This document shows positions 22,196 to 58,389 of a stretch of DNA of 64,000 nt, piece after piece. Origin of the DNA: a plasmid; the sequence record NZ_CP024587.1. One strand, 5' to 3'. The position numbers were made by a program, and so were the translations under genes. The notes below the pieces were generated by a model. That model was not told the DNA's origin, did no database searches, and saw only the letters and a list, made by a program, of their open reading frames with translations. Every line of letters begins with the position of its first letter. Positions within the stretch are counted from its first letter, which is position 1.

Positions 22196-22202
22196 GGCTC
22201 CG

Positions 22203-25200: not shown

Positions 25201-25445
25201 TCGTCGTCTACGCCGACATCGCTGCACGCGACCGCGCTGCCCTGATCGGGGCCCGGCTGCTGCTGGTGGAGGGACGGATCGAGCGTGAGGCCGAGCGGGC
25301 CGAGGTGCCGGTCATCCACCTGATCTGCCGCCGATTGGAGGACCGCTCCGACTTGCTCAGAGGCCTTATGGATGACGATTTCAGCGGTCAAAGGCCCCCG
25401 GCTCAATCACCCAAAGGCATGCCAGCAAGCCGGGACTTTCGGTAA
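22203..25445 (+). CDS. dnaE2: Error-prone DNA polymerase DnaE2 (ImuC)
   Basis: 1,080 aa; PHP domain 'LGCRSNFTLLDGASHPQEL', Pol IIIalpha core ('DIDVDFEHERREEVIQ', 'LLKVDILALGMLS', 'FYDLVVQVALVRPGP') and OB-fold C-terminus. Confidence 0.9.
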   Translation: MSPAYAELGCRSNFTLLDGASHPQELVATAAALGHAGLGLCDTNSLAGVVRGHVAAREFDLPYVVGCRLRLDDGAEYLAWPTDRTSYGRLTRLLSLGRMRSPKGECAITREEMLAHAPGWCLAAVSPLRPDLAFADRLQADARALRGVLALPLLCTATVRFDDIDEDRLEALAEMTAVTGTGLLATNDVRYHAPGRRPLADVLTAIRLGRPVDRLGQAAEPNAERHLKPPAEMARLFRDHPDALRSTLRVLDACQGFSLSQLRHEYPDEILEPGRTPQQTLAVRVAEAATARFPRGVSSDIQARLDHELALIGQLDYAPYFLTVDEVVRFARGRGILCQGRGSAANSSVCYVLGITAVDPSKHDLLFERFLSAERAEPPDIDVDFEHERREEVIQFLYRRYGRDRAAIVGTVIRFRGRSAVREVGKVLGLSEDVTGRLAKASWGPGRDDSLVEIAAAEGLDLADRRLRLALELAEEIQDFPRHLATHVGGFVISRGPLIEMAVIGNAAMDGRTVLEWDKNDVEALGLLKVDILALGMLSCLRRGFELLRRHRLADLDLAAVPRDCDETYAMLRRADSLGVFQVESRAQMNMLPRLRPSRFYDLVVQVALVRPGPIQGDMVHPYLRRRWGDEAPVYPSPAPEHGPPDELEKVLGRTLGVPLFQEQAMRVAIVAAGFSPGEADQLRRAMATFKYTQGVAVYRDRLVGGMVRRGYDPELAERVFKQIEGFGSYGFPESHAASFAHLAYASAWLKCHHPAVFAAALLNSQPMGFYAPAQIVRDAQQHRVVVRRLDVNESQWDCTLEPEARSAEGLALRLGLRLAEGLAAEDGKRVAEARRAGNGSPFASVDEVVRRAGVPRRAIEALAAADGFAGMGLDRRTALWDARGVENDTPPLLRLAGQAAAAGEPPLLSEPSSALPAEDDGQAMMLDYVATGLSLRQHPLALLRPRLQALGCRTTRDLDSLRGGARIRLAGLVLMRQRPGTAKGIVFVTVEDEHGTANLVVYADIAARDRAALIGARLLLVEGRIEREAERAEVPVIHLICRRLEDRSDLLRGLMDDDFSGQRPPAQSPKGMPASRDFR

Positions 25446-25748
25446 AGTCTGCTTTCCCGCTTTCGGGAAATCAGTAGAAACCGATGGCACGTTCGGTCTG
25501 CCCTACTTGTGGTTTGAGGGACGGTACGTTTCTCCCGGCAGATCATCAGCGGCATCTTAGTCAGTACAAGCGCCTGATTTCTCTTACTAGTTCACCCGAT
25601 ACCGAGATGTACCAAAGGGCTGTTTCCGGCTTTCCCGAAATAGGGAAATAGCTCTTTAGGGCTATCGGGTTTCCGTGAAAGCGGGTTACAACGAAGAAGG
25701 TGAGCGGGAAAGCCCGGTTTCACGAAACCGGTGTTTCGGGAGAGTTCC
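25446..25748. promoter_or_regulatory. Iteron/operator-like region with repeated TTTCCCG...CGGGAAA palindromes upstream of parA
   Basis: Short palindromes: TTTCCCGCTTTCGGGAAA (about 25453-25470), TTCCCGAAATAGGGAA, CGGGAAAGCCCG and CGGTTTCACGAAACCG. GC content is lower than the genes. Confidence 0.45.
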
Positions 25749-26859: not shown

Positions 26860-26906
26860 TTTCCGGAAAACCGGAAAGACCGATATAGATCAATCGGTCT
26901 TTCCGG
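26860..26906. repeat. Long perfect palindromes after the par operon (bidirectional terminator or centromere-like site)
   Basis: TTTCCGGAAAACCGGAAA overlaps CCGGAAAGACCGAT-ATAGATCA-ATCGGTCTTTCCGG (14-bp arms). Confidence 0.5.
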
Positions 26907-28308: not shown

Positions 28309-28456
28309 GGTGCGAACGAGCAGCGAAGGCTGCGTGGCAATCCTCTTTCCGTTCGCATCACGGCCCGCGAGCCTGAACCCGATTGGTGCGGAGAGAGGCG
28401 AGGCATGGAGGGCAGGAGGGGAGGAGCGGGGCCGCTACCGCGAGCACCGGACACGC

Positions 28457-28516
28457 GACAAGGGTGCGTCGGCTGGCGCCTCCCGCGCCGGGGCAGGCCC
28501 CGGCTGCGCCCTTGTC
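28457..28516. repeat. Leading-region stem-loop element, copy 1 (variant GACAAGGG...CCCTTGTC)
   Basis: Inverted repeat about 55 bp upstream of the toprim gene, followed by an SD hairpin ATTCCGAGGAAT. Confidence 0.55.
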
Positions 28517-28568
28517 CCGCGTCCGTCTCGCGGTTGGCGGGTGGAATCACGGTGAAGGATTCCGAGGA

Positions 28569-29522
28569 ATGAGTGGCCCCGATGAGGAGTTGGATAGACT
28601 GAGGGAGGGCGTGAACTGTGCCGCCCTGCTGGAGCGCCTGCCGCCCCCCTGGAAGCTGGACAAGGCGGAAAGCACCCGGGACTGCCTGAAGTACCGGCGC
28701 GGCAAGGGTGAGATCATCATCGTCAACCATGGCGGCCAGGGCTGGTGGGACGCCGGGAGCACCGCCAAGGGCGATGTGTTCCGGCTGGTGCAGCACCTCC
28801 GGCCCGATCTGAACTTCGGCCATGTCCGCAAGCTGCTCCGCGAGATGGTCGGGTTGCAGCCGAGCTTTCCCGAGCACGAGCGGGTGCGTCCGCAAGGGGA
28901 GGGGAGCGTCCCACCCGCCATGCGCTGGGCTGCGGCGAAGTCTCTCCGTCCGGGATCGCGGGCCTGGGGCTACCTGGCCGAGGTCCGGCATCTGCCCTCT
29001 CCGGTGCTTCGGGCAGCGGCGGCGGCGGGCGCCCTCCGGGAGGGGGCCTACGGCACCGCCTGGTTCGCCCATCGCGACGAGAGCGGCACGCTGACAGGCT
29101 TCGACATGCGCGGGCCGGTGTTTCGCGGCTTCGCCAAGGGGGGCGAGAAGACCCTGTTCCGCCTGCCCGGCTGGATCCGCTCGCGGGAGGTGCTGCCGCA
29201 CCGCCTGGCCGTGGCCGAGGCGCCGATCGACGCCCTGAGCCTCGCGGCGGTCGAACGACTGCGGGGCGACACCCTCTATGTCGCGACCAGCGGCGGCATG
29301 GGGCCTGGAACCGTCCGTGCCCTGGACCTTCTGCTGGCCGCCATGGCCGCCCTCCCGGATGCCTGCCTGGCCGTCGCCACCGACAGTGACCCACCCGGCG
29401 AACGCTACGCCGCCTTCCTGGGGGAGCGGGCCGCGGCGGCGGGCGTGCCCAGCGAGCGCTGCCTGCCACCGCACGGGCTGAACGACTGGAACGACGCCTT
29501 GCGACAGGGGAGGGGGGCATGA
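28569..29522 (+). CDS. DUF3991-Toprim domain protein (conjugative-element primase/topoisomerase-like)
   Basis: 'EIIIVNHGGQGWWDAGSTAKGDVFRLVQHL' is DUF3991-like. C-terminal Toprim has 'AEAPIDALSLAAVE...LYVATSGG' and 'LAVATDSDPPGERYA'. Confidence 0.7.
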   Translation: MSGPDEELDRLREGVNCAALLERLPPPWKLDKAESTRDCLKYRRGKGEIIIVNHGGQGWWDAGSTAKGDVFRLVQHLRPDLNFGHVRKLLREMVGLQPSFPEHERVRPQGEGSVPPAMRWAAAKSLRPGSRAWGYLAEVRHLPSPVLRAAAAAGALREGAYGTAWFAHRDESGTLTGFDMRGPVFRGFAKGGEKTLFRLPGWIRSREVLPHRLAVAEAPIDALSLAAVERLRGDTLYVATSGGMGPGTVRALDLLLAAMAALPDACLAVATDSDPPGERYAAFLGERAAAAGVPSERCLPPHGLNDWNDALRQGRGA

Positions 29523-29854
29523 GCACCACCGAACGCGCGGCTCCGGCCCCGAGCCACGAAGCGTGGACCCTTGCACGGGCCCTGCACACCGCCTTTCTCC
29601 GGCTGCCCGACCGGCTGAGAGCCCGCTGCACGGTGCCGCCGACCGGGGATGCCGCGATCGACCGGCCGGTGCTGGTCGAGGCCTGCGACGGCTCCGACCA
29701 CTACCGGGGCGTGGTGGTCGCGGGACAGCGCGACGAGAGCGGCCTCTGGTTGCTGGACGACGCCTTCACCCTGCTGACCCTCGACCACGACGACGGCCCC
29801 GAGGCCGCGCTTGTCGTCTGCCATGGATGGAACTGCCATGCCGACCGCATCTGA
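29519..29854 (+). CDS. Hypothetical small protein
   Basis: 111-aa ORF whose start overlaps the toprim stop (ATGA). It overlaps the helicase 5' end, so one of the two starts is likely shorter. Confidence 0.3.
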   Translation: MSTTERAAPAPSHEAWTLARALHTAFLRLPDRLRARCTVPPTGDAAIDRPVLVEACDGSDHYRGVVVAGQRDESGLWLLDDAFTLLTLDHDDGPEAALVVCHGWNCHADRI

Positions 29855-31877
29855 CACCACAGACCACGACCACCTGGTGGCCGGGCTGACCCCTGCCCAG
29901 GGAGAGGCGGCCGGGATGCACGGGCCGGTGCTGGTGCTGGCGGGAGCCGGAACCGGCAAGACCAAGACGTTGACCGCCGGCGTCGTGCTGCGGATCGCCG
30001 AGCGCGGCATCCCCGCCTCTCGCATCCTGGCCGTGACCTTCACCAACAAGGCCGCCAGTGAAATGCGCGCCCGCATCGTCGCCCTGCTTGACGGCCAGGC
30101 GGCGCCATCCTGGATCGGCACCTTCCATGGTCTTGGCGCCCGCCAGCTTCGCCTGGAGCCGGAGATGGCCGGGCTGCGCGAGGGTTTCGACGTGCTCGAC
30201 GCCGACGACAGCCGGCGCCTGCTCAAGCGGATCATGAAGGCCCGAGGTGAGGATGCCGACAACGAGGGCATGGGCAGGGACCCGGTCAAGACCATCGCCG
30301 GACACATCGGACGCTTCAAGGACAACCTCATCACCCCGGGTGAGGCAGCGATCCGCGCCGAGGCGATGATTGCTGGAGACCGGATGGCCGACGCCTCCGG
30401 CCTGCGCGCCGCGGCGCGTGTCTACCCCGAGTATCAGCGGCGGCTGGTGGAGGCCAACGCCGCCGATTTCGGAGACCTGCTGCTCTGGCCGAGCGTGTGC
30501 ATGGGACACGACGAGGAACGCCGGCAGCGCTTCGCCAGCCGCTTCTCCTGCATCCTGGCCGACGAGTACCAGGACGTGAATGCCGTGCAGTACCGATGGC
30601 TCCGGCTGATGGCCAGGGACCATGGCGAGATCTTCGCGGTCGGCGACGATGACCAGGCGGTGTTCGGCTGGCGCGGCGCGGACATCGAATACATCCGCCG
30701 CTTCACGCGCGACTTCCGGGATGCAGCCGTGGTGAAGCTGGAGGACAACTTCCGCTCCACCGGCCACATCCTCGCCGCGGCCAACGCGGTCATCGCGCGC
30801 GAGGACGGCCGCCTCGGCAAGACGCTGCGCCCTACCCGCGAGCAGGGCCAGCCCATCGAGGTGGTCAGGTTCCGCAACGACGAGGCCGAGGCTACCGGCA
30901 TCGTGGCCGAGATCCGCAAGCGCGGCTCGGAGGGCGTGCTCTGGCACGACATGGCCATCCTGTACCGAGCCAACCACCTGTCGCGCAACATCGAGGAGGA
31001 GCTGCTCCGCGCAAGGGTGCCCTATGTGCTGGTGGGCGATGTCGGCTTCTACCAGCGCGCCGAGATCAAGGATGCCCTGGCACTGCTTCGCCTCGCCGCA
31101 AGCCCTGACGATGGCCAGTCCGACGAGGCCTTCCGGCGCGCCTGCAACACCCCACCCCGCGGCATCGGCCCCAAGGCGCTCGATCTGCTGGAGCGCGACG
31201 CCGAATGGCGCGGCTCCTCGCTGCTCGCCGCCTGCCACACCGCGGATCTGCCGGCCAGGGTGCGGGGGGCGGCCGGAGCCTTCGCGGACGCCGTGCGTTC
31301 GGTCGCGGCCGACACCGGCGCCACGGTGGCCGACCGCCTGTCCATGCTGCTCGACCGGACCGGCTACCGACAATGGCTGCGCGACAGCCGCGCCGAGACG
31401 GTTGAGGGGCGCCTGGAGAACCTGGCCGAGCTGGTGCTGCTGGCCGGAGGCTTCCATTCGGCGACCGACTTGCTGGAGCATGCCGCACTGGCCAGCGCCG
31501 CGCCGGGCGAGGAGGCCGGGGGGCGCGTCCAGCTGCTCACCCTGCATCGTGCCAAGGGGCTGGAGTTCGCTCATGTCTTCCTGCCGGCCTGGAACACGAC
31601 GATCTTTCCGAGCCAGTACGGCGACGCGGCTGAGGAACGGCGCCTGGCCTATGTGGCGCTCACCCGCGGCAAGGAGCGGGTGGCGGTCAGTTATGCCGAG
31701 TTCCGCCGCGGCTACGTCGATCCGTCGCCCTTCCTCGACGACATCCCCGAAGCCAACCGGCATGAGGGATGGCTGCGCCCCCTGGAGCGGCGGCCGGCGC
31801 GACCCTCGCCCCGCCAGGCCGGCATGGACGCCCTCAACGAGATGCTCGCCGGCCTCCGTACCCGGCCAAGGGCATGA
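29811..31877 (+). CDS. UvrD/Rep/PcrA-family DNA helicase
   Basis: Walker A 'LAGAGTGKTKTL', 'VTFTNKAASEMRAR', 'ILADEYQDVN', 'LEDNFRST', 'LLTLHRAKGLEF', 'YVALTRGKERV'. Confidence 0.85.
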   Translation: MSSAMDGTAMPTASDTTDHDHLVAGLTPAQGEAAGMHGPVLVLAGAGTGKTKTLTAGVVLRIAERGIPASRILAVTFTNKAASEMRARIVALLDGQAAPSWIGTFHGLGARQLRLEPEMAGLREGFDVLDADDSRRLLKRIMKARGEDADNEGMGRDPVKTIAGHIGRFKDNLITPGEAAIRAEAMIAGDRMADASGLRAAARVYPEYQRRLVEANAADFGDLLLWPSVCMGHDEERRQRFASRFSCILADEYQDVNAVQYRWLRLMARDHGEIFAVGDDDQAVFGWRGADIEYIRRFTRDFRDAAVVKLEDNFRSTGHILAAANAVIAREDGRLGKTLRPTREQGQPIEVVRFRNDEAEATGIVAEIRKRGSEGVLWHDMAILYRANHLSRNIEEELLRARVPYVLVGDVGFYQRAEIKDALALLRLAASPDDGQSDEAFRRACNTPPRGIGPKALDLLERDAEWRGSSLLAACHTADLPARVRGAAGAFADAVRSVAADTGATVADRLSMLLDRTGYRQWLRDSRAETVEGRLENLAELVLLAGGFHSATDLLEHAALASAAPGEEAGGRVQLLTLHRAKGLEFAHVFLPAWNTTIFPSQYGDAAEERRLAYVALTRGKERVAVSYAEFRRGYVDPSPFLDDIPEANRHEGWLRPLERRPARPSPRQAGMDALNEMLAGLRTRPRA

Positions 31878-31953
31878 GGGAGCATAAAAGGTAAGGGAGG
31901 ACGCGACGGCAGGGGAAGGAGATGGACTCTGTGCCACCCTCGGCCGGATCGCC

Positions 31954-32001: not shown

Positions 32002-32088
32002 CCCGCTCCGCCCGGGGCGGCTGCGCGTGGGGGTCTTCGAGAAGAAGATCAGCAGGAGAGGCTACCCGTGACCCACGCCACCACCATC

Positions 32089-33840
32089 ATGCCCGCGCCG
32101 TCCATTCCGATCGCCCGCATCCGCGGCGCCCTGGGCGAGAAGGTGCTGCGCAAGAGCCCGGAGCTGTTCAACCAGTCGCTGCCCACCGTGCTGGCCGAGG
32201 TGCTGCAGAACGCCCGCCGTGCCGGCGCCAGCCGGGTCGAGATCGAGCACTTCGGCGAGGAGGGCCGGGCCACCCTTGTCGTGCGCGACAACGGGCACGG
32301 CATTGCCGACATGGGCAAGCTGGTGACCTTCGGCGCCTCCGCCTGGGACGAGCGGACGGATCTGGCGGAGAACGCCGCCGGCATGGGGGTGTTCTCGCTC
32401 GCCTCGCGCGGCGTGACCGTGCGTTCCCTCGGCCGGCGGGTGACGCTGAGCCGGGCGGTGTTCTGCGGCGAGGCCGACGCCGCGGTGCTGCCTGACCCCG
32501 GGATGGACGCTGGCACCGAGCTGACCTTTCCGGTCACGGAGGCTGGTGTCGCACGGCTCGTGGAGCGGGCGTGCCGCTTCTACCCATTGCCGGTGACCCT
32601 GAACGGCCAGCCCCTGGGGCAGCGCGACTTCCTGGCCGCCGCCGAGCATGTGGTGGAATGGCAGGGGCTGCGCCTGGGTGTGTTCCGGGAGCCCGGACCT
32701 CAGGTGCTGGATCTGTTCGACCGCCACCGTGGCTGGAGCAGCCGTCTGTACCTGAACTTCCACGGCCACGTCGTGGAATGCGGCACGGCGGTCGCCCTTG
32801 CCGAGGTGAGGGGGCCCACCCGGAGCGTGTTCGTGGACGTGATGTCGGCCCCGGACCTGCGCCTGGTGCTGCCGGCGCGCAACGAGCCGATCGACAACGA
32901 CTTCTTCCGCGCCATGCGGGCGCGGGCGGAGCGGGCTCTGCTGGAGGCGGTTGCCCGGCAACCGAAGCATGCGCTGGCCTTCACCGACGCGGAGCGGGCC
33001 GAGCGGCTGGGGATCACCCTGCCACCCGTGGAGATCGCGCTGTCTCCCTGGCGGATGGTCACCTACGAGACGCGGAGCCGTCTGGATGGCGTGGAGGCGC
33101 CCGTGGTGCTCGGAACGGATGGAACCGAGGTGCTGCTGGCGGACGGCGTCAGGTGGAGTGAGGCCTGCGACCAGGCCAACCTGCACCGCCTGCTGCTGGG
33201 CTGGAAGGATGGTCCCCGGGTGGTGGAGTCCAATCCCCGTTTCGCCGGCTATCCCGCCTATGACGCGCTGCGCGTCGTGTGGGAGGTGTCGGCGGTCGGC
33301 GTCGGTGCGGACGGTATGACCGAGGAGCTGGCGCCGCCGGTCTCAGGCAGCCCGCCCGTGTCGTGCGAGGACGATCGCCGGGTGGTCGAGACGGTGCGTG
33401 CCCGCCTCCTGGTGCAGAACGGAGGCCATTCACCCGGCGTGCCGACCCTTCTGCACGAGGCGGAGGTTCCCTTCTTCTTTACCTCCGAGGCCTTCGGTGA
33501 TCTGTTCCCGGACTTCGTCGTGACGCGTGGCACCGCTCCCGGTGATCTGACTGATGCCCTGGTTGAGGGGTTCTTCAGCTACAGCGACGATGCTGATGCC
33601 GACAGCTACGACCGGCAGCTGGAATGCTTCACGGTGGATGCCCTGGACATGGCTCGCGGACTGCTGCTGGACAATGACGCGGCCGTGGCGGCGCGGATCG
33701 TCGACGCCCTCCGGGATTCCCGCTGGGTGCTGCGCACCCTGGGCACCGGGCGCATCGAGCTGCAGATCACCGAATCCCAGGTAGGCAGCACGATCCGCAT
33801 CGTCAACGCGGCGGGCAAGGAGGTGACGGCCACCCTGTAG
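32089..33840 (+). CDS. GHKL-superfamily ATPase domain protein (N-terminal Bergerat fold, long C-terminal region of unknown function)
   Basis: N-box 'EVLQNARRAGAS', G1 'VRDNGHGIADMGKL', G2 'GMGVFS'. An alternative GTG start is at about 32068. Confidence 0.6.
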   Translation: MPAPSIPIARIRGALGEKVLRKSPELFNQSLPTVLAEVLQNARRAGASRVEIEHFGEEGRATLVVRDNGHGIADMGKLVTFGASAWDERTDLAENAAGMGVFSLASRGVTVRSLGRRVTLSRAVFCGEADAAVLPDPGMDAGTELTFPVTEAGVARLVERACRFYPLPVTLNGQPLGQRDFLAAAEHVVEWQGLRLGVFREPGPQVLDLFDRHRGWSSRLYLNFHGHVVECGTAVALAEVRGPTRSVFVDVMSAPDLRLVLPARNEPIDNDFFRAMRARAERALLEAVARQPKHALAFTDAERAERLGITLPPVEIALSPWRMVTYETRSRLDGVEAPVVLGTDGTEVLLADGVRWSEACDQANLHRLLLGWKDGPRVVESNPRFAGYPAYDALRVVWEVSAVGVGADGMTEELAPPVSGSPPVSCEDDRRVVETVRARLLVQNGGHSPGVPTLLHEAEVPFFFTSEAFGDLFPDFVVTRGTAPGDLTDALVEGFFSYSDDADADSYDRQLECFTVDALDMARGLLLDNDAAVAARIVDALRDSRWVLRTLGTGRIELQITESQVGSTIRIVNAAGKEVTATL

Positions 33841-33916
33841 GGAGGCGGATTCGAGAGGAGGGAAGGGAGAGGAACGAGGGGGCGGGGGAGGCCCTGCCAC
33901 CCTCGGCCAGGACGCG

Positions 33917-33961: not shown

Positions 33962-34029
33962 CCCGCCCCGGCCGGGGCGGCCGGCGGGCTGGGTCTTCGG
34001 GAAGAAGACGCAGCAGAAGGAACGGGATC

Positions 34030-36059: not shown

Positions 36060-36440
36060 GTGGCCACCATCAACATCGTCCTGTCCGCCTATCCCGGCCG
36101 TCGCGTGCGCGAGGTGGGCTGCAGCTGGACCTCCATCGGCATCGGCATCGGCGGCGGCACGCCGACGCGCCGCCTGGCCGTGCAGGGCCTGGGCGGCATC
36201 ACCGAGGCCGTGTCCGCCTTCGGCCGCGACGTGCTGGCCGCCAACCCGGAGGCAAGCTTCGTCATCTCCGTCACGATGGCAAGCGACCAGCGCAAGCCCC
36301 GCGGCTTCGACGACGCCGAGAGGGCCGGGACCTTCGGCCAGCACGCTCATCTGCGCGATGACGTTGGCGAAGAAGCGAATTACCGGAAGCTGGCCAGTCC
36401 GACCGTTTCCGCCCCGACACCGGCTCCAGTCCCGGCATGA
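36060..36440 (+). CDS. Hypothetical protein (GTG start)
   Basis: 'VATINIVLSAYPGRRVREVG...' ORF following the previous gene after 40 bp. Confidence 0.3.
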   Translation: MATINIVLSAYPGRRVREVGCSWTSIGIGIGGGTPTRRLAVQGLGGITEAVSAFGRDVLAANPEASFVISVTMASDQRKPRGFDDAERAGTFGQHAHLRDDVGEEANYRKLASPTVSAPTPAPVPA

Positions 36441-36494
36441 GGCAGGAGAGATGAGAGACAGGGAGGAGGGGCGTGCCGCACCCCGTCCCCCGCC

Positions 36495-36539
36495 GCAAGG
36501 GCAGGGGCCTGACGGCCCGCCGCTGCGCGGCGCCCTTGC
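36495..36539. repeat. Leading-region stem-loop element, copy 4
   Basis: Upstream of the 36594 ORF; followed by the GGTGTTCGGAAAGGAACACC hairpin (36571-36590) holding the SD in its loop. Confidence 0.6.
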
Positions 36540-36593
36540 CCCGGGGGCACGGGGCGCCGGCGACAGGGGAGGTGTTCGGAAAGGAACACCGCC

Positions 36594-36941
36594 ATGGAAA
36601 TCCGCCGCCTTGCCGCCCGTCCGGGCACGGCCCTGCTCACCCCGCTCGCGCCCGCCGCCGCGAACGACGCGATCGCCTGCTCCCGGTGCAGCACGGCCTT
36701 CGGCACCGATCCGACGCTTGCGGTTGACTGCCCGGTCTGCCGCGCTCCGCAGGGCGAGCGTTGCCGCCAGCCGGCGCAGGGCGGCTTCCACCGCTCACAC
36801 TACACCCGCGCCCGCATGGCGCTGGCCCTTGGTCGCATGGGCGCCTGCCCGGCCCTGACCTGGGACGATCTCCACGCCCTGCCAGTGCGCGTGGCGCCGG
36901 CATCCCCGACCATCGACCAGCCCGTCCCCGAGAGCCCTTGA
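36594..36941 (+). CDS. Small zinc-ribbon-like protein
   Basis: 'CSRCSTAF...CPVCRAPQGERC' pair of CxxC motifs; preceded by the repeat element and an SD-sequestering hairpin. Confidence 0.35.
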   Translation: MEIRRLAARPGTALLTPLAPAAANDAIACSRCSTAFGTDPTLAVDCPVCRAPQGERCRQPAQGGFHRSHYTRARMALALGRMGACPALTWDDLHALPVRVAPASPTIDQPVPESP

Positions 36942-36951
36942 GGAGCCCCCC

Positions 36952-37230
36952 ATGAGCGCCGTCCGCACCTTTCTCGACCTGTCCACCGCCCATCTCTCGG
37001 ATGAGGATCGGACGCTGCTCGAAGCCTGCGCCGGACACGACACCGGCGAGGTCCTCTGCGCCAGGACCCCCTACGGCTGGTTCGTCTTTGCCTGCGAGGA
37101 ACGGCCAGAGATCTCCGACACCCTCTGGGGATTGTTCCAGAGCGCCCGGGAGCAGGGCTGCGAGTACCTCCTGTTCGACCGTGACGCCCCGATGCTCGAC
37201 GACTTCGCCACCTTCGAGTGGCACGCCTGA
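36952..37230 (+). CDS. Small conserved hypothetical protein
   Basis: 92 aa, 'LDLSTAHLSDEDRTLLE...TPYGWFVFACEE...GCEYLLFDRDAPMLDDFATFEW'. Confidence 0.4.
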   Translation: MSAVRTFLDLSTAHLSDEDRTLLEACAGHDTGEVLCARTPYGWFVFACEERPEISDTLWGLFQSAREQGCEYLLFDRDAPMLDDFATFEWHA

Positions 37231-37296
37231 TCCGGTGATCCCGGAAGAAACGGGGCATCGGGAGAGCAGGGCCGTCCCGCACCGGGGACGGCCGCC

Positions 37297-37342
37297 GCAA
37301 GGGGCCGTCGGCTGGCGCCTCCCGCGCTGCGCGCGCCCTTGC
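37297..37342. repeat. Leading-region stem-loop element, copy 5
   Basis: Preceded by hairpin GCCGTCCCGCACCGGGGACGGC (37271-37292); about 100 nt nearly identical to copy 6. Confidence 0.65.
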
Positions 37343-37394
37343 CCCAGCCGCCCCGGATGCGGGTTCGGGTCGCATCGCGAAAGGAGACAGGGCG

Positions 37395-37709
37395 ATGACG
37401 ACCACGATCCACAATCTCAAGCGTGAGGCACTGCGGCCGGGCGATGTGCGGATCGACCGCCGCACCGAGTTCGGCAATCCGTTCGTGCTGGGGCGCGACG
37501 GCACCCGGGCGGAGGTGATCGCGCAGTTCGAGGCCGCCGAGCGCGCGCGGCTCGCCGACCCGAAGACCGGCGCGGCGCGGCGGGCGAAGGTGCGGGCGAT
37601 GCACGGCCGGCGGCTTTTCTGCTGGTGCGCGCCGCTGCCCTGCCACGGCAACGTTTACGCCAGGCTCGCCGCCGAGCTGGTGCAGGCCGAAGGCGAGGCG
37701 AAGCCGTAG
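37395..37709 (+). CDS. DUF4326-family protein
   Basis: 'EFGNPFVLGRDGTRAEVIAQFE...MHGRRLFCWCAPLPCHGNVYARL' matches the DUF4326 pattern (GNPF...L.C.C.P..CH). Confidence 0.55.
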   Translation: MTTTIHNLKREALRPGDVRIDRRTEFGNPFVLGRDGTRAEVIAQFEAAERARLADPKTGAARRAKVRAMHGRRLFCWCAPLPCHGNVYARLAAELVQAEGEAKP

Positions 37710-37787
37710 GGCAGGCGGAGGAGAAGGAAACCAGCGGCAGAGAGAGGGGAGGGAGAGGCGAGCCGTCCCGCACCGGGGACGGCCGCC

Positions 37788-37833
37788 GCAAGGGTTCGTC
37801 GGCTGGCGCCTCCCGCGCTGCGCGCGCCCTTGC
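37788..37833. repeat. Leading-region stem-loop element, copy 6 (upstream of ardC)
   Basis: Same upstream hairpin (37763-37784). Followed by SD hairpin GGTGTTCC-GAGAGAATGAAAG-GGAACACC (37863-37891) abutting the ardC ATG. Confidence 0.65.
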
Positions 37834-37892
37834 CCCGGCCGCCCCGGATGCGGGGGCGGGGAGGTGTTCCGAGAGAATGAAAGGGAACACCG

Positions 37893-38867
37893 ATGGCCCA
37901 TCCCCGCCGCCAGTCGTCCGAACGCCCGGCGTCCCGCGACCACTACGCCGAGATCACGGCCCAGGTGATCGCGGCACTGGAGGCGGGCACCCTGCCGTGG
38001 CGCCGTCCCTGGGACCAGGACAAGGCCGGCGCCGGTCCGCTCTCGCCGCGCAATGCCACCACCGGCCGCCGTTATCACGGGATCAACCTGCTGCTGCTCG
38101 GCATGACGGGCATGGCCTTCGCCGGCACCGACCCCCGGTGGCTGACCTACAAGCAGGCCGAGGCGAAGGGCTGGCAGGTCCGCCGCGGCGAGCGCGGCTC
38201 GCGCGTGTTCTTCTTCCGCAAGCTGACCCTGCGCGACGGCGACGCCGCGCCGGATGCCGGCGGCGAGGGGGAGGGGGCCACCCGCACCGTGCCGGTGCTG
38301 CGCGCCTACACCGTATTCCACGCGAGCCAGGTGGACGGCATCGCCCCCTTCGAGGCGCCTTCCGTCGAGGAGGCGTCCTGGCGCACGCCCGAGGCAGCCG
38401 GGACCATCATGCGCAACAGCGGCGTGGTGTTCCGCGAAGGCGGCGACCGTGCCTTCTACTGCCCCGCCACCGACCACATCCAACTGCCCCCACGCGCCGC
38501 CTTCGCGAGTCCGGAAGGCTATTGCGCGACGGCGCTGCACGAGCTGGCGCACGCCTCCGGCGCGACGCACCGGCTCGACCGCGACCTGACCGGCCGCTTC
38601 GGCAGCCAGGCCTACGCGCAGGAGGAGCTGCGCGCCGAGTTGGCCTCCTGCTTCATCGGCGCCGAGCTGGGCCTGCCCTGCGATATCCCCAACCACGCCA
38701 GCTACGTGGCGTCGTGGCTCAGGACGCTGCGCGAGGACAAGCGCGAGATCTTCCGCGCCGCGGCGGAGGCACAGAGGATCACCGACTACCTGCTGGCCTT
38801 CCACCCCGGATACGCCCGGATCGCGGCCGAGGACGCACGGCGCGACGAGGCCGGCGACGAGGCGTGA
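37893..38867 (+). CDS. ardC: ArdC-family antirestriction protein (ssDNA-binding N-domain plus zincin-like metallopeptidase C-domain)
   Basis: 'ITAQVIAALEAGTLPWRRPW', 'YHGINLLLL', 'RWLTYKQAEAKGWQVRRGERG' and C-terminal 'ALHELAHASGATHRLDRD...AQEELRAELASCFIGAELG'. Confidence 0.8.
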   Translation: MAHPRRQSSERPASRDHYAEITAQVIAALEAGTLPWRRPWDQDKAGAGPLSPRNATTGRRYHGINLLLLGMTGMAFAGTDPRWLTYKQAEAKGWQVRRGERGSRVFFFRKLTLRDGDAAPDAGGEGEGATRTVPVLRAYTVFHASQVDGIAPFEAPSVEEASWRTPEAAGTIMRNSGVVFREGGDRAFYCPATDHIQLPPRAAFASPEGYCATALHELAHASGATHRLDRDLTGRFGSQAYAQEELRAELASCFIGAELGLPCDIPNHASYVASWLRTLREDKREIFRAAAEAQRITDYLLAFHPGYARIAAEDARRDEAGDEA

Positions 38868-39874
38868 GCGCCACCCTGAGGCAAGGCCAGGCCGGGGATG
38901 CGCCCGACCTGCGCTCCTACGACCACGTCGTCCTGTTCACCTCCGGCGGCAAGGACGCCACGGCGTGCCTGCTGCACCTGCTGGAGCAGGGCGTGGACCC
39001 GGCCCGCATCGAGCTGCACCACCACGAGGTGGACGGCCACGGAGCCACCTTCATGGACTGGCCGGTGACGGGCGCCTACGTCGCCGCCCAGGCGGAGGCC
39101 TTCGGCCTGCCGCTGTTCCGCTCCTGGCGCGAAGGCGGCTTCGAGCGGGAGATGCTGCGCCAGGATGCACCGACGGCGCCGATCCTGTTCGAGACGCCTC
39201 ATGGCCTCATGAGGGCAGGAGGCGCGGGGCCACGCAACACCCGGCTGCGGTTCCCCCAGGTCTCGGCCGACCTCTCGGTGCGCTGGTGCTCGGCCGCGCT
39301 CAAGATCGGCGTCGGCGCCGCCACGATCGCCGGTCAGGACCGCTTCCTGGGCCGCCGCACCCTGGTCGTGACCGGCGAGCGGGCGCAGGAAAGCGCGGCA
39401 CGGGCACGCTACGCCACCTTCGAGCCGCACCGCACCGACACGCGCGGCGGCACACGCCGGTCGCGTCATGTCGACCATTGGCGGCCGGTCCATGGCTGGG
39501 ACGAGGCCCGGGTCTGGGAGGCGCTGCGGCGCCACGGCGTGCGGCCGCACCCGGCCTATGAGCTGGGCTGGTCGAGGCTGTCCTGCATGGCCTGCATCTT
39601 CGGCTCGGCGGCGCAGTGGGCGACGATCCGCCATATCGCGCCAGCGCTGTTCGAGCGCATCGCGGCCTACGAGGAGCGGTTCGGCCGCACCATCCAGCGC
39701 GCCCGCTCGATCCGCGCCCTGGCCGATATTGGCCGTCCCTACCCGGTTGCCCTCGCCCGTCCCGACCTCGTGGCGCTTGCCCTGGGCGAGACCTGGGATC
39801 TGCCGATCCTGGGGTCGCCCTTGGCCTGGACCCTGCCAGCAGGCGCCTTCGGCGAGGCCGCCGGGCCTTCCTGA
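38864..39874 (+). CDS. PAPS-reductase-like (PP-loop ATPase) family protein
   Basis: PP-loop 'VVLFTSGGKDATACLL'. The GTG start overlaps the ardC stop. Confidence 0.65.
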   Translation: MSATLRQGQAGDAPDLRSYDHVVLFTSGGKDATACLLHLLEQGVDPARIELHHHEVDGHGATFMDWPVTGAYVAAQAEAFGLPLFRSWREGGFEREMLRQDAPTAPILFETPHGLMRAGGAGPRNTRLRFPQVSADLSVRWCSAALKIGVGAATIAGQDRFLGRRTLVVTGERAQESAARARYATFEPHRTDTRGGTRRSRHVDHWRPVHGWDEARVWEALRRHGVRPHPAYELGWSRLSCMACIFGSAAQWATIRHIAPALFERIAAYEERFGRTIQRARSIRALADIGRPYPVALARPDLVALALGETWDLPILGSPLAWTLPAGAFGEAAGPS

Positions 39875-47832: not shown

Positions 47833-47904
47833 CTGTCCATCCCGAATATCCATATTTTCTGGATATTCGGGATCCGGATCTCGGCCGCGAGGCGCTTGAA
47901 GCAG

Positions 47905-48262: not shown

Positions 48263-48481
48263 CTCGGCCTTGGACCGGCCGTGCAAAAAGAAAGGCGGCG
48301 CCCGAGGGTGCCGCCCAAGTTTAGGGAGGAAACGTCCAAGTAAGGCGGCAACCCAGCGGGTGCCGTGTCGCCGCACCCCGCACCATGACCCAGGCTGCCC
48401 TTCGGGTCCAATCAAATGACGCGCCGCAGCAGAACGGGCCGAGCCGGTGTCCTCGTGCTCCGCTCTCATGCCTGGGATGTT

Positions 48482-48533
48482 GGAAAGCCGGAAAGCCGGA
48501 AAGCGGGAAATCGGGAAACACGGAAAGCGGGGG
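48482..48533. repeat. Tandem 8-bp repeat array (C/G)GGAAA(G/T)C, about 6 units, upstream of the parB-like gene
   Basis: GGAAAGCC GGAAAGCC GGAAAGCG GGAAATCG GGAAACAC GGAAAGCG. ORF 48416-48925 is merely its translation. Confidence 0.55.
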
Positions 48534-48770
48534 AGAGGAGGAGCAGGAGCGCTGGCATCCGGGCACCGCCCGGCACCGCTTCGCTCCACGGCCGCCTGCG
48601 CAGCCCTGCCCCGCTGGGCCGCAGCCCGCCCTGCCGGGCTGGGCCGCGTCCGGCGACGGGTCAGGGCCGCTCGCCCGCCGTGGTGCCGGACGGCCCCCGG
48701 CCGCCGGCGTGGGAGGGGTCAGCCCAGGAATGGGGTGACGGGAACCCCGGTCCGGAGAGCCACTCTCGCC

Positions 48771-50537
48771 ATGAAGATCGTCCACGCCAACCCGCGCAAG
48801 CTGCGCGACAACCCCGAGAACCCCCGCCGCACCAGGCCGAGCGCGGAGGCCGACGCGCAGTTGCTCGCCAATATCCAGGCGGTCGGCATCCTGCAGCCGC
48901 CCACCGCGCGCGAGATCGCGGGTGAACTGGTCCTGATCGCCGGCCACCGTCGCCGCGACGCGGCCATCAAGGCGAAGCTGAAGGAGATCGCCGTCCTCGT
49001 CCGCGAGCCCGGCGACGACGCCGCGCAGGGCGGCGACGGCGTGCGGGCGCTGGCCGAAAACATGGTCCGCACCGCGATGAGCCCGGTAGACCAGTGGCGC
49101 GCCGTCGAGGCGCTGGTCGGGGAGGACTGGACCGAGGACGCCATCGCAGCCGCGCTGAACCTGCCGGTGCGCCGCATCCGCGCCCTGCGCCACCTCTCGC
49201 GCGTGCATCCGGCGATGCTGGACCACATGGCACGCGGCGACATGCCGACCGACCAGCAGCTCCGCACCATCGGCCTCGCCTCGGCCGAGGATCAGGCCTC
49301 GGTCTGGCAGAGGAGCAAGCCGAAGCGCGGCGAGCGCGCCCACTGGCACGGTATCGCCGCCGCCCTGGAGAAGCGCCGCATCCCCTTCGCCGTCGCCAGG
49401 TTCGGCGAGGCCGAGACCGAGGCCTTCGGGATCGTCTGGCAGGACGACCTGTTCGCCCCCGCCGGAGAGGAGGGCCGCTTCACCACCCAGCTCGACGCCT
49501 TCCTGCAGGCGCAGCAGGCGTGGCTGGAGGCCAACCTGCCAGACCGCGCCGTGCTCCTGGGCCTCGACGAGTGGGGCCGCGTCATGTTCCCCAAAGGGGC
49601 GCAGGAGCTCTACTACAAGCAGCCCCGCGACGAGTTCGACCGCATCGGCCTCACCGTCGATCCGCGCTCCGGCGAAGTGCGGCAGACGCTGTTCCGGGAG
49701 GCACCGCCCCGCGAGGAGCGCGGTGGCCGGGGCCGTGAGGCATCGGCCGATGGCACGGTGCTGCCCAAGGTCACCCGCCCGCCGCTGACCCAGAAGGGCG
49801 ACGCCATGGTGGGCGACCTGCGCACCGACGCGCTGCACGAGGCTTTCGCGCAGGCCGAGATCCCGGACCAGACCCTGATCGGCCTGCTCGTGCTCGCGCT
49901 CGCCGGGCAGAACGTGCAGGTCCGCAGCGGCGCCAAGGGCGACGACCTGTACGCCGGAGCGCGCGCCGCGATCGCCGCCGGCCTCCTCGAAGGCGGCGTG
50001 CTCACCGCAGACGCGGACGCCCTGCGTGCCGCCGCCCGCGCCATGCTGCGCCAGGCGCTGTCCTGCCGGGTGGGCTTCTCCACCTCGGGCCTGGTCGCCC
50101 GCTACGCCGGGGTGGCTGTCGATGCCGACGCCTACCTTCCCACCACCGCCACCGAGGAGTTCCTGGCCCATCTGAGCAAGGACGCGATCATGGGCACGGC
50201 CAGCGCCAACAACGTGGCGCCGCGCAACACCGGCAAGGCAACCCGTGCTGCGGTGGTCGAGCGCTTCAAGGGGCAGACCTTCCTCCACCCGCTGGTGCGC
50301 TTCGCGCTGACCACGGAGGAGCAGCGCAAGTTGGCCGAGCAGCGGCAGCGGGAGGAGAGCCGCGCCGCCCTGCGCGCCAGCTGGCAGTCCTCTGGGGAGG
50401 ATGATGGGGAGGACGAGAGCTCCGGCGAGGAAGAGACCGCGGGCAACATGGATATGGATGGCGAGGAGGTGGATCTCCCTACCGATGGCCTCCATCCGCC
50501 GTCCGGCAGCCAGCCCCCGGTTGTCCATACCACCTGA
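48771..50537 (+). CDS. ParB/Srx nuclease-domain protein (leading-region ParB-like)
   Basis: N-terminal ParB box 'LVLIAGHRRRDAA', 589 aa, acidic C-terminal tail. Confidence 0.75.
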   Translation: MKIVHANPRKLRDNPENPRRTRPSAEADAQLLANIQAVGILQPPTAREIAGELVLIAGHRRRDAAIKAKLKEIAVLVREPGDDAAQGGDGVRALAENMVRTAMSPVDQWRAVEALVGEDWTEDAIAAALNLPVRRIRALRHLSRVHPAMLDHMARGDMPTDQQLRTIGLASAEDQASVWQRSKPKRGERAHWHGIAAALEKRRIPFAVARFGEAETEAFGIVWQDDLFAPAGEEGRFTTQLDAFLQAQQAWLEANLPDRAVLLGLDEWGRVMFPKGAQELYYKQPRDEFDRIGLTVDPRSGEVRQTLFREAPPREERGGRGREASADGTVLPKVTRPPLTQKGDAMVGDLRTDALHEAFAQAEIPDQTLIGLLVLALAGQNVQVRSGAKGDDLYAGARAAIAAGLLEGGVLTADADALRAAARAMLRQALSCRVGFSTSGLVARYAGVAVDADAYLPTTATEEFLAHLSKDAIMGTASANNVAPRNTGKATRAAVVERFKGQTFLHPLVRFALTTEEQRKLAEQRQREESRAALRASWQSSGEDDGEDESSGEEETAGNMDMDGEEVDLPTDGLHPPSGSQPPVVHTT

Positions 50538-50628
50538 CACCGCAAGCCTGGTCGCATGGCCGACGCCCTGGGAAGGCTGAGAAGCGGACGCAGGACACGA
50601 AGGCCCCTGCCGCATCCGTCCCCCGGCG

Positions 50629-51374: not shown

Positions 51375-51410
51375 GAGCGGAGGGAGCGCTGCCGCATCCG
51401 TCCCCCGGCG

Positions 51411-51453: not shown

Positions 51454-51548
51454 CCCCGGCGGCCCGGAACGCGGCGGCTGGGGAGGGTCGAGGAGAAAGC
51501 GGCCGGCAAGGCCGGGGCCACCTCGGCATCCCGAATCCCTGATGGGAG

Positions 51549-57607: not shown

Positions 57608-58389
57608 GTTAGTCAATCATCCTGGACGCCAGTCGGGCAACCGTTCGGACCCAAGGCTCGCACGGCGCATCTTCAACGCCTGGCGCATCGGAACCGCCAT
57701 GCCGATGCCCGACATCGCTCGCCTGCTGGACGTCTGCGGCCATGGGGCGGCTGCCAGCCGGATGCGCCAGACGGCGCTGGAGGGCGGCAGCAATCCCGGC
57801 CTGACCCTCGAAGAAGTCACCGATCTCATCTCCTGCTGGGCGGACGAAACACGGGCTGCGCGACGCAACGCCACGCCTTGAGGCGGGCTCGCGGGGTGCC
57901 CCCTTTCGCCGCCGTCGACCGCGATCCCGCGGAAAGGATGGCATTGGCGCCGCTGATGCCCGGCTCCTGACCAGTCCATAGAGGTCGGATCAGGGATAGG
58001 ATGGAGGGGGAGGAGGGGAATAGAGGAGATTGGAGACGGGCCAGGGGAGATGTCCGAAGGACGAGAGTGGGGAGACGTGTGTCGGCTACCTGCCCGTGCC
58101 GGCCGCATATCCTCGGGGTGCTGCGGTCTGAGCCACGGCGCCGGCCGCTCCTACCCCCGCTTTCCCCGAAGCCGGGGAAAGCGCCTCCGGCTCGGCACGC
58201 TCGGTCAGGGGCCGGGGCCGCGCCTTGCGCGGGGCGATGCCCCGCTGCGGCGCAACCCCAACCCCCTCCCTCACATGCCTCGGGGGTAGGACCGCCCGCC
58301 ACCGCGCCTCTGTTCGACCGCACCCGAGGATACGCGACCGGCACGGGCCGGAAGCCTCTTCGGGGAGAGAGAATGAAGAGGATCTGACG

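Follow-up and report, generated by a model that had tools for sequence, protein, structure and literature searches.

Inverted repeats stand just in front of several start codons in the leading region of a Roseomonas-type conjugative plasmid, and the question is what they do there. Leading-region genes (anti-restriction, SSB, methylase) need to be expressed within minutes of entry, from single-strand DNA (ssDNA), and work on the mechanism of this early expression has been confined almost entirely to the F and IncI plasmids of enterobacteria. In pESBL and F, each leading-region operon has its own ssDNA-promoter hairpin (PMC12672017). We analysed a 64,000-nt stretch of plasmid record NZ_CP024587.1 (the window), which has a GC content of 69%, is syntenic with Roseomonas plasmids and forms the leading region, with genes for ArdC, SSB, a DUF3991-Toprim protein, DUF4326 and DUF5983 proteins, a UvrD-like helicase, ParB_N and a giant methylase. 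The MobF relaxase gene lies downstream of the leading region on the same strand. From this position, and by analogy with MOBF plasmids, the − strand was taken as the transferred strand.

An earlier, sequence-only reading of this DNA had listed six small hairpins that would sequester the Shine-Dalgarno sequence before unrelated genes and that, together with an upstream stem-loop, would make up a shared two-part leader. It offered two explanations, namely coordinated translational control or a structured ssDNA promoter whose loop carries the ribosome-binding site.

Large hairpins upstream of leading-region genes

Consensus scans of positions 36300-38000 predicted no sigma-70-type double-strand promoter and no intrinsic terminator. 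A sigma-54 promoter (GG-N10-GC around CCCTTGC) was rejected on inspection of the sequence because its spacing is wrong. The element that recurs upstream of the genes is a ~105-nt imperfect hairpin with a CAAGGG..CCCTTG core (module 1), of which the window holds nine copies, all on the + strand, against 0.1 expected:

28426..28543, + strand: large element, Toprim-gene leader; 59.2 bits
31922..32030, + strand: large element, HATPase-gene leader; 81 bits
33885..33990, + strand: large element, leader of the gene at 34030; 69.2 bits
36464..36569, + strand: large element, leader of the ORF at 36594; 55.2 bits
37265..37371, + strand: large element, DUF4326 leader; 72.7 bits
37756..37862, + strand: large element with CAAGGG..CCCTTGCCCC core, ardC leader, co-oriented with the gene; 82.5 bits
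50598..50702, + strand: large element, leader of a 65-aa gene (ATG 50725); 66.6 bits
51380..51484, + strand: large element, leader of a 232-aa gene; 70.8 bits
55498..55604, + strand: large element, leader of a 70-aa gene; 64.3 bits

A loose palindromic regular expression for module 1 is strand-blind and noisy in distant loci, and a covariance model (R1) was used instead. All of its matches in alphaproteobacterial loci (76/76) are co-oriented with the genes, and it gave 0 matches in 8 distant ArdC loci. The stem pairs show many CG↔GC swaps. Module 1 folds better on the − strand in 46/59 leaders, and counts of wobble pairs in its arms are only modestly biased (70 vs 47), so that the strand assignment comes mainly from fold energies. 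The large element of the ardC leader probably folds on the − (transferred) strand. In 58/59 leaders, an invariant junction base has a −35-like TTGC(G/C)N at a distance of 17 or 18 nt, and it is with this base that the unpaired sequence at the foot of the stem begins in 30/53 folds.

The element shares several properties with Frpo/ssi of F and ColIb-P9 and with classes 1-3 of pESBL. These are likewise large imperfect hairpins upstream of genes with the transferred strand as template, likewise serve ssb, anti-restriction genes and methylases, and likewise carry a −35-like TTG in the stem, 17-18 nt from the junction. Module 1 differs from Frpo/ssi in being much shorter (~105 nt), GC-rich and alphaproteobacterial, and in having no recognisable −10 hexamer (no TATAAT-like sequence); its GC-rich core bears no obvious resemblance to Frpo/ssi, as judged without direct comparison. 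Rfam contains no Frpo/ssi family. Module 1 would most likely fold on the transferred strand and act there as an ssDNA promoter or priming signal, a promoter activity suggested by its geometry and by these likenesses.

Placement and folding strand of the small hairpins

The small hairpins (module 2) are given below with predicted RNA energies and with z-scores of these energies against dinucleotide shuffles:

28543..28563, + strand: GGAATC/ACGGTGAAG/GATTCC, 5 nt before ATG 28569 of the DUF3991-Toprim gene; −8.2 kcal/mol, z −1.7
32032..32050, + strand: GGTCTTC/GAGAA/GAAGATC, 17 nt before GTG 32068 of the HATPase-domain gene; −13.0 kcal/mol, z −1.1
33993..34009, + strand: GTCTTC/GGGAA/GAAGAC with outer extension GCUG..CAGC, 20 nt before ATG 34030; −17.8 kcal/mol, z −4.7
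36571..36590, + strand: GGTGTTC/GGAAAG/GAACACC, 3 nt before ATG 36594 of a 115-aa zinc-finger ORF; −14.9 kcal/mol, z −4.3, 0/200 shuffles
37373..37397, + strand: weak hairpin CATCGC/GAAAGGAGACAGG/GCGATG before the DUF4326 gene; −7.2 kcal/mol, z −1.5
37863..37891, + strand: GGTGTTCC/GAGAGAATGAAAG/GGAACACC, 1 nt before ardC ATG 37893; −13.4 kcal/mol, z −3.7
51487..51527, + strand: larger branched first hairpin GTCGAGG...CCTCGGC enclosing an inner hairpin, leader of the 232-aa gene, offset unchanged; 82-nt leader −36.1 kcal/mol, z −2.5
58355..58381, + strand: CCTCTTC/13 nt/GAAGAGG, before ssb ATG 58390, with the 3' arm as ribosome-binding site; −13.4 kcal/mol, z −0.7, not significant alone

Five of the six hairpins listed earlier are present as described, and the predicted stability of the small hairpins as a whole (−7 to −18 kcal/mol) agrees with the earlier proposal. 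The sixth, before the gene at 28569, had been mis-specified: 'ATTCCGAGGAAT' (28559-28570) is a 4-bp palindrome that homologues do not keep, and the GGAATC/GATTCC stem replaces it. The DUF4326 hairpin was absent from that list, and the gene formerly placed at 32089 more likely starts at GTG 32068, according to the annotation of homologues. The leader at 50725 (65-aa gene) has no small hairpin after the large element (−1.1 kcal/mol), and that of the 70-aa gene has no compact one.

Small hairpins are frequent in this DNA. Generic 6-bp hairpins with purine-rich loops number ~70 per strand in the window, and a single hairpin is therefore unremarkable. This frequency is the point in favour of chance palindromes in GC-rich intergenic DNA, and is set against placement. 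A compact hairpin follows module 1 in 46/60 leaders, and the two-part arrangement proposed earlier for unrelated genes was confirmed in 12/16 gene families; the other 4/16 have no compact hairpin. From the CCCTTG of module 1 to the beginning of the small hairpin there are 30.6±3.1 nt (12 family medians), as against a distance of 11±10.7 nt between hairpin and start codon (range −7 to +30 nt). The next 40 nt downstream of module 1 have a mean energy of −12.5 kcal/mol, compared with −8.4 for dinucleotide shuffles (p 5e-16), and reach ≤ −12 kcal/mol in 59% of cases, compared with 12% of shuffles. Searches against Rfam found no family for either hairpin across the whole window at the gathering threshold, and only chance-level matches in 36400-37950 at E up to 10.

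The arrangement is also conserved, as the earlier proposal had anticipated for homologous elements: the two-part leader is kept in plasmids of Roseomonas, other Acetobacteraceae, Rhodoblastus, Roseiarcus and Acidisoma. Fixed placement after module 1 together with this conservation is well beyond chance.

Stem sequences change and pairing is kept. GTCTTC/GAAGAC becomes GTCTCG/CGAGAC or GGTCTC/GAGACC, and covariation in the GTCTTC-type alignment includes the hairpin of the gene at 34030. The Toprim-leader stem is GGAATCC/GGATTCC in 9 homologues and covaries to GGCATTCC/GGAGTGCC and GGGAATCC/GGGTTCCC. The ardC stem is swapped for others across genera and lineages (GGTGTTC/GAGCACC, GGCTGTTTT/AGGACAGCC, GGGGT../..ATCCC), and homologues of the 36594 ORF keep its hairpin, with the variants GAACATC, GAACGCC and GGACACC still pairing through G·U. 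Within Roseomonas, the arms of the ardC and 36594-ORF hairpins are nearly invariant, which could reflect a sequence-specific rather than a structural constraint, e.g. a GGAGGTG motif.

These data also bear on the possibility that the repeats are operators for a plasmid repressor on double-strand DNA. Repeated operators before establishment genes are known (Reg576 in p576; PMC6294495). However, the stems differ among families with pairing kept, which does not fit one DNA-binding protein, and an asymmetry towards G·U pairs, given below, is unexpected for double-strand sites. Chance, for its part, is excluded by placement within about ±3 nt and conservation across genera. Taken as one explanation, operators or chance palindromes are very improbable.

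Relatedness among the sequences inflates the figures for strand and covariation, which are these: in 51/59 leaders the + strand gives the better fold of the small-hairpin region; a strand-symmetric stem finder applied to 47 distinct arm pairs counted 29 G·U against 12 A·C on the + strand, a moderate bias (p 0.012, uncorrected); and alignment A2 has pairing in 85.6% of its cells (27-57% with slid partners), 3 pairs that change on both sides, and a covariation score of 0.276 against 0.194, which was reached in 0/500 shuffles. Tolerance of G·U on the + strand points to RNA, and the small hairpins probably fold in the mRNA (+ strand).

This strand preference weighs on a quite unlikely alternative, in which the small inverted repeat is a DNA-level part of the ssDNA promoter that folds on the transferred strand directly after the large hairpin, where it could serve as a downstream duplex for RNA polymerase, as a block to coating by SSB or as a roadblock to synthesis of the complementary strand. 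The distance to the large hairpin is constant, the small hairpin also appears in the fold of the − strand DNA, and the ssp2 stem-loop of F stalls complementary-strand synthesis (bioRxiv 2026.01.09.698686). Against this, the substitutions that pair on the + strand as G·U would be A·C on the − strand, the small-hairpin region in most leaders folds better on the + strand, and an open-complex bubble would not fit into the linker. The stems of 6-8 bp with loops of up to 13 nt were also judged weak as DNA. The earlier notion of an ssDNA promoter with the ribosome-binding site in its loop is divided between the two modules: the large hairpin is promoter-like on the − strand, and the small one belongs to the RNA level.

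Ribosome-binding sites and the 5' end of the transcript

Whether the hairpins hide ribosome-binding sites differs from leader to leader (the automatic site caller was noisy, and sites were assigned by inspection). Sequestration holds in part for ardC, the 36594 ORF, Toprim and DUF4326 and is ambiguous for ssb; elsewhere a separate, unpaired site lies downstream. For ardC and the 36594 ORF, the 3' edge of the site and the spacer are paired as claimed, but the GAAAGG core is in the loop (in the 36594 ORF it also takes in the edge of the 3' arm), with a mean pairing probability of 0.36-0.44. The DUF4326 leader has its site unpaired within the loop and its start codon (37395) paired within the 3' arm. 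Separate unpaired sites follow the hairpin in the leaders at 34030 (GAAGGAA) and 32068 (AGGAGAGG), and in at least six leader families altogether (57-aa, HATPase, LPD29, 88-aa, 170-aa, 127-aa).

It is unlikely, on this evidence, that the hairpins occlude the site as riboregulators or RNA thermometers and so give coordinated translational control of leading-region genes. Occlusion would suit the ardC, 36594-ORF, Toprim and DUF4326 leaders, whose stems reach −7 to −15 kcal/mol and whose 3' arms lie over the start codon, the spacer or a part of the site, as well as the 5' arms CCUCUUC and UGUUCC, which resemble the anti-Shine-Dalgarno sequence. It would also suit the ardC hairpin, which ends 0-3 nt 5' of the start in all alphaproteobacterial lineages examined. 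It does not suit the free sites 13-30 nt downstream of the hairpin in the six or more families above, nor the looped-out GAAAGG cores, nor ssb, where the 5' arm of the hairpin has an alternative partner upstream (CCGAGGAU), the alternative fold is favoured in a 93-95-nt context (window sequence), and one homologue (L008) has lost the hairpin. Above all, the hairpin is fixed to module 1 and not to the start codon, so that hiding the site is unlikely to be its shared job and occlusion is not supported as a general principle of control. Shared hiding of the ribosome-binding site is not what the placement of the hairpins shows.

Two other translational devices were considered. A 'split' site, in which GGAGGUG 5' of the hairpin is brought beside the AUG, is not favoured, as a GGRGG tract also follows the large hairpin in leaders with an ordinary downstream site. 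A small leader ORF from the ATG inside the ardC and ssb loops was rejected, the ATG being lost in homologous loci L007 and L008 and the frame being open or inconsistent.

We propose instead, tentatively and as a possibility that falls a little short of probable, that the small hairpins are 5'-proximal stem-loops of the mRNA, a second module after a candidate ssDNA promoter with a role at the 5' end of the RNA. Module 2 would be an RNA hairpin of 5-11 bp whose 5' arm is rich in pyrimidines and whose loop and 3' arm are rich in purines. It would follow the base of module 1 by 6-11 nt, close to where the transcript is predicted to start. The geometry of module 1 would put this start no more than about 4 nt to either side of the first base of the small hairpin. 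A strict sigma-70 start (12 nt past the stem base) would count against this reading: where the linker measures 8 nt (ardC, 36594 ORF), it would lie 0-4 nt into the 5' arm and so shorten the RNA hairpin.

The shared role of module 2 may be to protect or stabilise a transcript that is produced in a brief burst off a single template, as suggested by analogy with other leaders, and it may also give the leader a defined fold. The ribosome-binding site would then be shown at the 3' side of the loop in ardC, the 36594 ORF, Toprim and DUF4326, and would be free downstream of module 2 in the leaders at 34030 and 32068 and in others. Where the stem covers the spacer or start codon, as in the first four, translation is probably tuned.

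A distinctly improbable variant gives the small hairpin another task at the same place: by folding on itself, the first RNA would peel the transcript off its single-strand template, giving mRNA rather than an RNA-DNA hybrid primer. Wherever the ribosome-binding site lies, the RNA-level constraint comes where transcription is predicted to begin, and Frpo-type promoters can yield RNA-DNA hybrids from which synthesis of the complementary strand is primed. However, the four families that lack the hairpin count against it, as does the ability of bacterial RNA polymerase to free its RNA from a single-strand template unaided. It is similarly doubtful, and improbable on present evidence, that the two hairpins are one unit in which the large one recruits RNA polymerase and the small one, folding within the initial 20-30 nt of nascent RNA, detaches the transcript from its partnerless template. 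If that were true, the small hairpin would decide between a stable, translatable mRNA and an RNA-DNA hybrid primer, and the leader would represent a previously undescribed, alphaproteobacterial class of ssDNA expression cassette, reused before unrelated anti-defence genes.

Related leaders in other systems and the region upstream of ssb

Regarding the proposed 5'-proximal role of module 2, the ompA 5' UTR is an example of a 5'-terminal stabilising stem-loop of a bacterial mRNA. In p576, inverted repeats in the ardC 5' UTR raise expression and their deletion lowers it, which the authors credit to transcript stability (PMC6294495). Both have a stable hairpin near the 5' end that is independent of the position of the ribosome-binding site, as is proposed here, and by analogy module 2 may stabilise its RNA. 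They differ from the present leaders in that the 5' end of the transcript is here a predicted one and some of the hairpins overlap the ribosome-binding region.

ROSE and fourU thermometers and other site-sequestering hairpins likewise pair a pyrimidine-rich arm with a purine-rich sequence near the start, as in ardC, the 36594 ORF, Toprim and ssb. In contrast to ROSE and fourU, the core of the site is here mostly in the loop, many leaders place the site outside the hairpin, and the hairpins match no Rfam family.

Repeated regulatory sequences upstream of establishment genes also include the CUP repeats of the IncN plasmid pKM101. EGeRS1 and EGeRS2 of pLS20 and p576 are conserved structured repeats before unrelated establishment genes including ardC (PMC8708921, PMC6294495), and in this they resemble the leaders described here. 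EGeRS1, however, is ~600 bp long and occurs on plasmids that transfer the non-template strand, whereas the present module is ~140 nt with two discrete hairpins, and EGeRS2 consists of ordinary promoters with repressor operators, unlike this two-hairpin module. A second conserved, RNA-level hairpin directly 3' of the large one is not described in the literature that we found on Frpo/ssi.

On alphaproteobacterial plasmids, the compact modular leader recurs in front of 16 or more gene families. If confirmed, it would provide a sequence signature for early-expressed establishment genes in GC-rich plasmids and a simple system for the stabilisation and translation of transcripts from ssDNA. A shared switch that sequesters the Shine-Dalgarno sequence is a narrower claim and would matter less.

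The ssb gene, included earlier in the two-part set, does not belong to it: it has no CAAGGG..CCCTTG element upstream. It is preceded by a structure unlike the large element:

58130..58310, − strand: ~180-nt branched stem-loop upstream of ssb, predicted fold

The predicted energy is −93.7 kcal/mol (z −6.9, 0/200 shuffles; 263 nt, DNA parameters), and from this modelled fold the stem-loop is a candidate second class of T-strand hairpin.

Genes of a probable leading region and their upstream element

Plasmids of Roseomonas gilardii and R. mucosa share 77-91% DNA identity and a conserved gene order with the window (GC content 69%), and carry a MobF relaxase gene downstream on the same strand. F and R388 are MOBF plasmids and, orienting the region by analogy with them, we infer that it is a leading region and that the − strand is transferred. 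The − strand would therefore be the template for + strand genes, and + is the predominant strand among the genes examined in the window to the right of about 28 kb.

Genes of the region, with Pfam assignments
28569-29522, +, DUF3991-Toprim gene
29811-31877, +, UvrD-like helicase (UvrD/REP family) gene, E 8e-70
32068-33840, +, HATPase-domain protein gene
36594-36941, zinc-finger ORF, weak match below the Pfam cut-off
36952-37230, DUF5983 gene
37395-37709, DUF4326 gene
37893-38867, ArdC gene (ardC)
38864-39874, PAPS-reductase-like protein gene
48447-50537, ParB_N protein gene
58390-58878, SSB gene (ssb)

The motif CAAGGG-N20-50-CCCTTG occurs nine times in the window (0.1 expected), on the + strand every time, and each copy is followed by a start codon 50-160 nt downstream. 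An alignment of 51 copies shows a long imperfect hairpin (hereafter the big hairpin) in which CAAGGG/CCCTTG is invariant, with CG/GC swaps at the adjoining stem pairs in about 40% of the sequences. A covariance model made from this alignment was searched in the window and in 22 alphaproteobacterial ArdC-anchored loci (Roseomonas, uncultured Acetobacteraceae, Acidisoma, Rhodoblastus and Roseiarcus), giving 76 matches, all on the ardC strand; eight more distant ArdC loci gave none. The 40-nt flank 5' of every big hairpin in the window has a + strand purine content of 68-93%; the window averages 50±9%, and none of the nine flanks falls below the 97th percentile. Read on the transferred strand, the flank forms a CT-rich tail adjoining the stem base, and may contribute a third part to the leader module.

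Purine-rich flanks
28394-28433, +
31888-31927, +
33853-33892, +
36432-36471, +
37233-37272, +
37724-37763, +
50566-50605, +
51348-51387, +
55466-55505, +

In pESBL and F every operon of the leading region is served by an ssDNA-promoter hairpin of its own, and RACE has located the start sites (PMC12672017; PMC11541004). If the big hairpin folds on the − strand, CCC-TTGC(G/C)N lies on the arm that would be the non-template strand. An invariant base (T on +, A on −) is found 17 or 18 nt beyond TTGC(G/C)N in 58 of 59 leaders, and is the first unpaired nucleotide at the stem foot in 30 of 53 DNA folds. Together they resemble a −35 hexamer optimally spaced from the −11 adenine at a fork junction. 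The big hairpin has no TATAAT-like hexamer, and neither a double-strand sigma-70 promoter nor an intrinsic terminator was predicted in the intergenic regions within 36300-38000.

Placement of the small hairpin and the ribosome-binding site

The sequence-only reading had proposed that hairpins close before several start codons sequester the Shine-Dalgarno (SD) sequence, either for coordinated translational control or as part of a structured ssDNA promoter with the ribosome-binding site in its loop. The hairpins themselves were confirmed at 36571-36590, 37863-37891, 32032-32050, 33993-34009 and 58355-58381. The motif quoted for the 28569 gene, ATTCCGAGGAAT (28559-28570), is a 4-bp palindrome that homologues do not retain; the conserved hairpin there is GGAATC/ACGGTGAAG/GATTCC at 28543-28563. 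The gene placed at 32089 more probably starts at GTG 32068, after the site AGGAGAGG, in agreement with homologue annotation. The hairpins have predicted RNA energies between −7 and −18 kcal/mol, and only three are individually significant against dinucleotide shuffles (36594 ORF, z −4.3; ardC, z −3.7; 34030 gene, z −4.7). As each strand of the window has about 70 hairpins with a stem of at least 6 bp and a purine-rich loop, single hairpins are insufficient to make the case.

We pooled the leaders of the window and of eight annotated Roseomonas plasmids, 60 in total. In 46 of them, representing 12 of 16 gene families, a compact hairpin (5 or more Watson-Crick pairs, loop of at most 15 nt) comes after the big element. 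The spacing from CCCTTG to the hairpin's first base is 30.6±3.1 nt (family medians, range 24-37), and that from its last base to the start codon is 11±10.7 nt (range −7 to +30). Given this tight spacing on one side and loose spacing on the other, the upstream element, not the start codon, anchors the small hairpin. The 40 nt 3' of the big element have a mean folding energy of −12.5 kcal/mol versus −8.4 for their own dinucleotide shuffles (p 5e-16), and 59% reach −12 kcal/mol versus 12% of shuffles.

The linker between stem base and small hairpin is 6-11 nt long, so a transcription start about 12 nt past the stem base would be about 4 nt or less from the small hairpin's first base. In the 34030 and 32068 leaders the predicted start would coincide with that base, and for ardC and the 36594 ORF it would lie within the 5' arm, a few nucleotides in. 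In nearly all leaders the linker is occupied by a G-rich tract, often GGGGAGG, irrespective of where the real ribosome-binding site lies. It is a perfect GGAGGUG in the 36594 ORF (36566-36572) and ardC (37858-37864), is also present in the compared loci L009-L019, and could be an initial transcribed sequence or an SD-like 5' element.

The small hairpin takes two arrangements relative to the ribosome-binding site. For four leaders (ardC, the 36594 ORF, Toprim and DUF4326) the site's core (GAAAGG, AGGAGAA, GAAAGGAGA) is located in the purine-rich loop, and the spacer is covered by the 3' arm, which in DUF4326 covers the start codon instead. ardC keeps this arrangement in all lineages examined, the hairpin ending 0-3 nt before the start codon despite differing stems.

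Stems of the ardC hairpin
Roseomonas, GGTGTTCC/GGAACACC
Uncultured Acetobacteraceae, GGTGTTC/GAGCACC
Rhodoblastus, GGCTGTTTT/AGGACAGCC
Acidisoma, GGGGT../..ATCCC

In the second arrangement (34030, 32068, LPD29, 88-aa, 170-aa and 127-aa leaders) an interval of 13-30 nt separates the hairpin from the downstream start codon and contains an ordinary unpaired site (GAAGGA, AGGAGA). Where the hairpin overlaps the ribosome-binding region, it would also affect translation initiation. The sequence-only reading was right about five of the six hairpins that it listed and only partly right about their mechanism; a shared SD-sequestering switch is not supported, since the hairpin follows the upstream element and the site is often outside it.

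The ssb leader lacks the CAAGGG..CCCTTG element. The 3' arm of its small hairpin, GAAGAGG, is the ribosome-binding site, and the 5' arm pairs equally well with upstream CCGAGGAU; the hairpin is absent from the predicted fold of the 93-95-nt ssb context in the window and missing in one homologue. ssb is instead preceded by a different branched stem-loop of about 180 nt (58130-58310), predicted on the − strand (263 nt, −93.7 kcal/mol, z −6.9) and kept in four Roseomonas plasmids. Its position matches that of Frpo in F, and it may represent a second class of T-strand hairpin.

Strand signatures and interpretation

Pairing-preserving changes are seen in the small-hairpin stems: GTCTTC/GAAGAC becomes GTCTCG/CGAGAC or GGTCTC/GAGACC, GGAATCC/GGATTCC becomes GGCATTCC/GGAGTGCC, and CCGTGAGGG/CCCTTACGG becomes CCGTGAGG/CCTCACGG. 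In a MAFFT alignment of 17 GTCTTC-type hairpins, paired cells make up 85.6% versus 27-57% with partners slid, three pairs are altered in both partners and none of 500 shuffles matches the observed covariation score, figures that are inflated by the relatedness of the sequences. Single substitutions are mostly transitions giving G·U on the + strand (e.g. GAACACC to GAACATC or GAACGCC), which on the − strand are A·C. With strand-symmetric scoring of 47 distinct arm pairs, the counts are 29 G·U and 12 A·C (binomial p 0.012, phylogeny ignored). Under RNA parameters the + strand folds better in the small-hairpin region of 51/59 leaders, and the − strand in the big hairpin of 46/59.

From this substitution bias and the modelled folds we conclude that constraint on the small hairpin operates at the level of + strand RNA. 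Action at the DNA level is disfavoured by the strand asymmetry, and a role as operators by stem sequences that vary between families. For the big hairpin, folding makes constraint on the transferred strand more likely, with a direct wobble count in its arms of only 70 versus 47.

The best-supported reading is a modular leader, in which the big hairpin would act as a candidate single-strand DNA promoter and be followed by a 5'-proximal RNA stem-loop. This stem-loop probably serves the transcript 5' end in all its leaders, stabilising the RNA and giving it a defined fold. Inverted repeats in the 5' UTR of p576 ardC boost expression, which the authors credit to transcript stability (PMC6294495). 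More speculatively, the RNA hairpin might aid release of the nascent transcript from the single-strand template. If so, it would favour mRNA over RNA-DNA hybrids, which at Frpo-type promoters prime complementary-strand synthesis (bioRxiv 2026.01.09.698686).

The general kind of leader is already known. Stem-loops are common in 5' UTRs, and unrelated establishment genes are preceded by repeated, structured regulatory sequences in other systems too, among them the CUP repeats of pKM101 and Frpo/ssi. EGeRS in pLS20 and p576 are of the same kind (PMC8708921). We found no Rfam family for the leader module, and no description of it in the literature library that was searched. What appears new is the specific compact two-hairpin module, its wide distribution in alphaproteobacterial plasmids and the opposite strand signatures of its hairpins.

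Neighbouring features

The UvrD/REP-family helicase gene (29811-31877, +) sits within the leading region. Melting of the F ssDNA-promoter stem-loop ssp2 during complementary-strand synthesis requires host UvrD (bioRxiv 2026.01.09.698686), and this plasmid may supply its own helicase. Upstream of the leaders, at 18887-25445 (+), homologous plasmids annotate Y-family polymerase and error-prone DNA polymerase genes (imuB/dnaE2-like) on the same strand; from this annotation, mutagenic polymerase genes appear to belong to the early-entering region.

The alphaproteobacterial sRNA family mmgR/suhB (RF00519) is matched over its full length at 48278-48353 (−), with 57.2 bits for a gathering score of 41; the match runs antisense to the direction of the genes, with the giant methylase operon on one side and the ParB_N gene on the other. 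Directly 3' of the stop of the 1736-aa methylase/helicase ORF, ATCCCGAATATCCA/TGGATATTCGGGAT form a perfect inverted repeat of 14 bp around a 7-nt loop (47839-47873), and related CCCGAAT..CCCTGAT motifs occur in the 232-aa (~51528) and 70-aa (~55650) leaders. Inverted repeats of the form TTTCC(C/G)G-N4-6-C(G/C)GGAAA, which may be operator sites, are found three times near 25-27 kb (25453-25470, 25631-25648 and 26860-26877) and once in the ssb upstream region (58160-58181).
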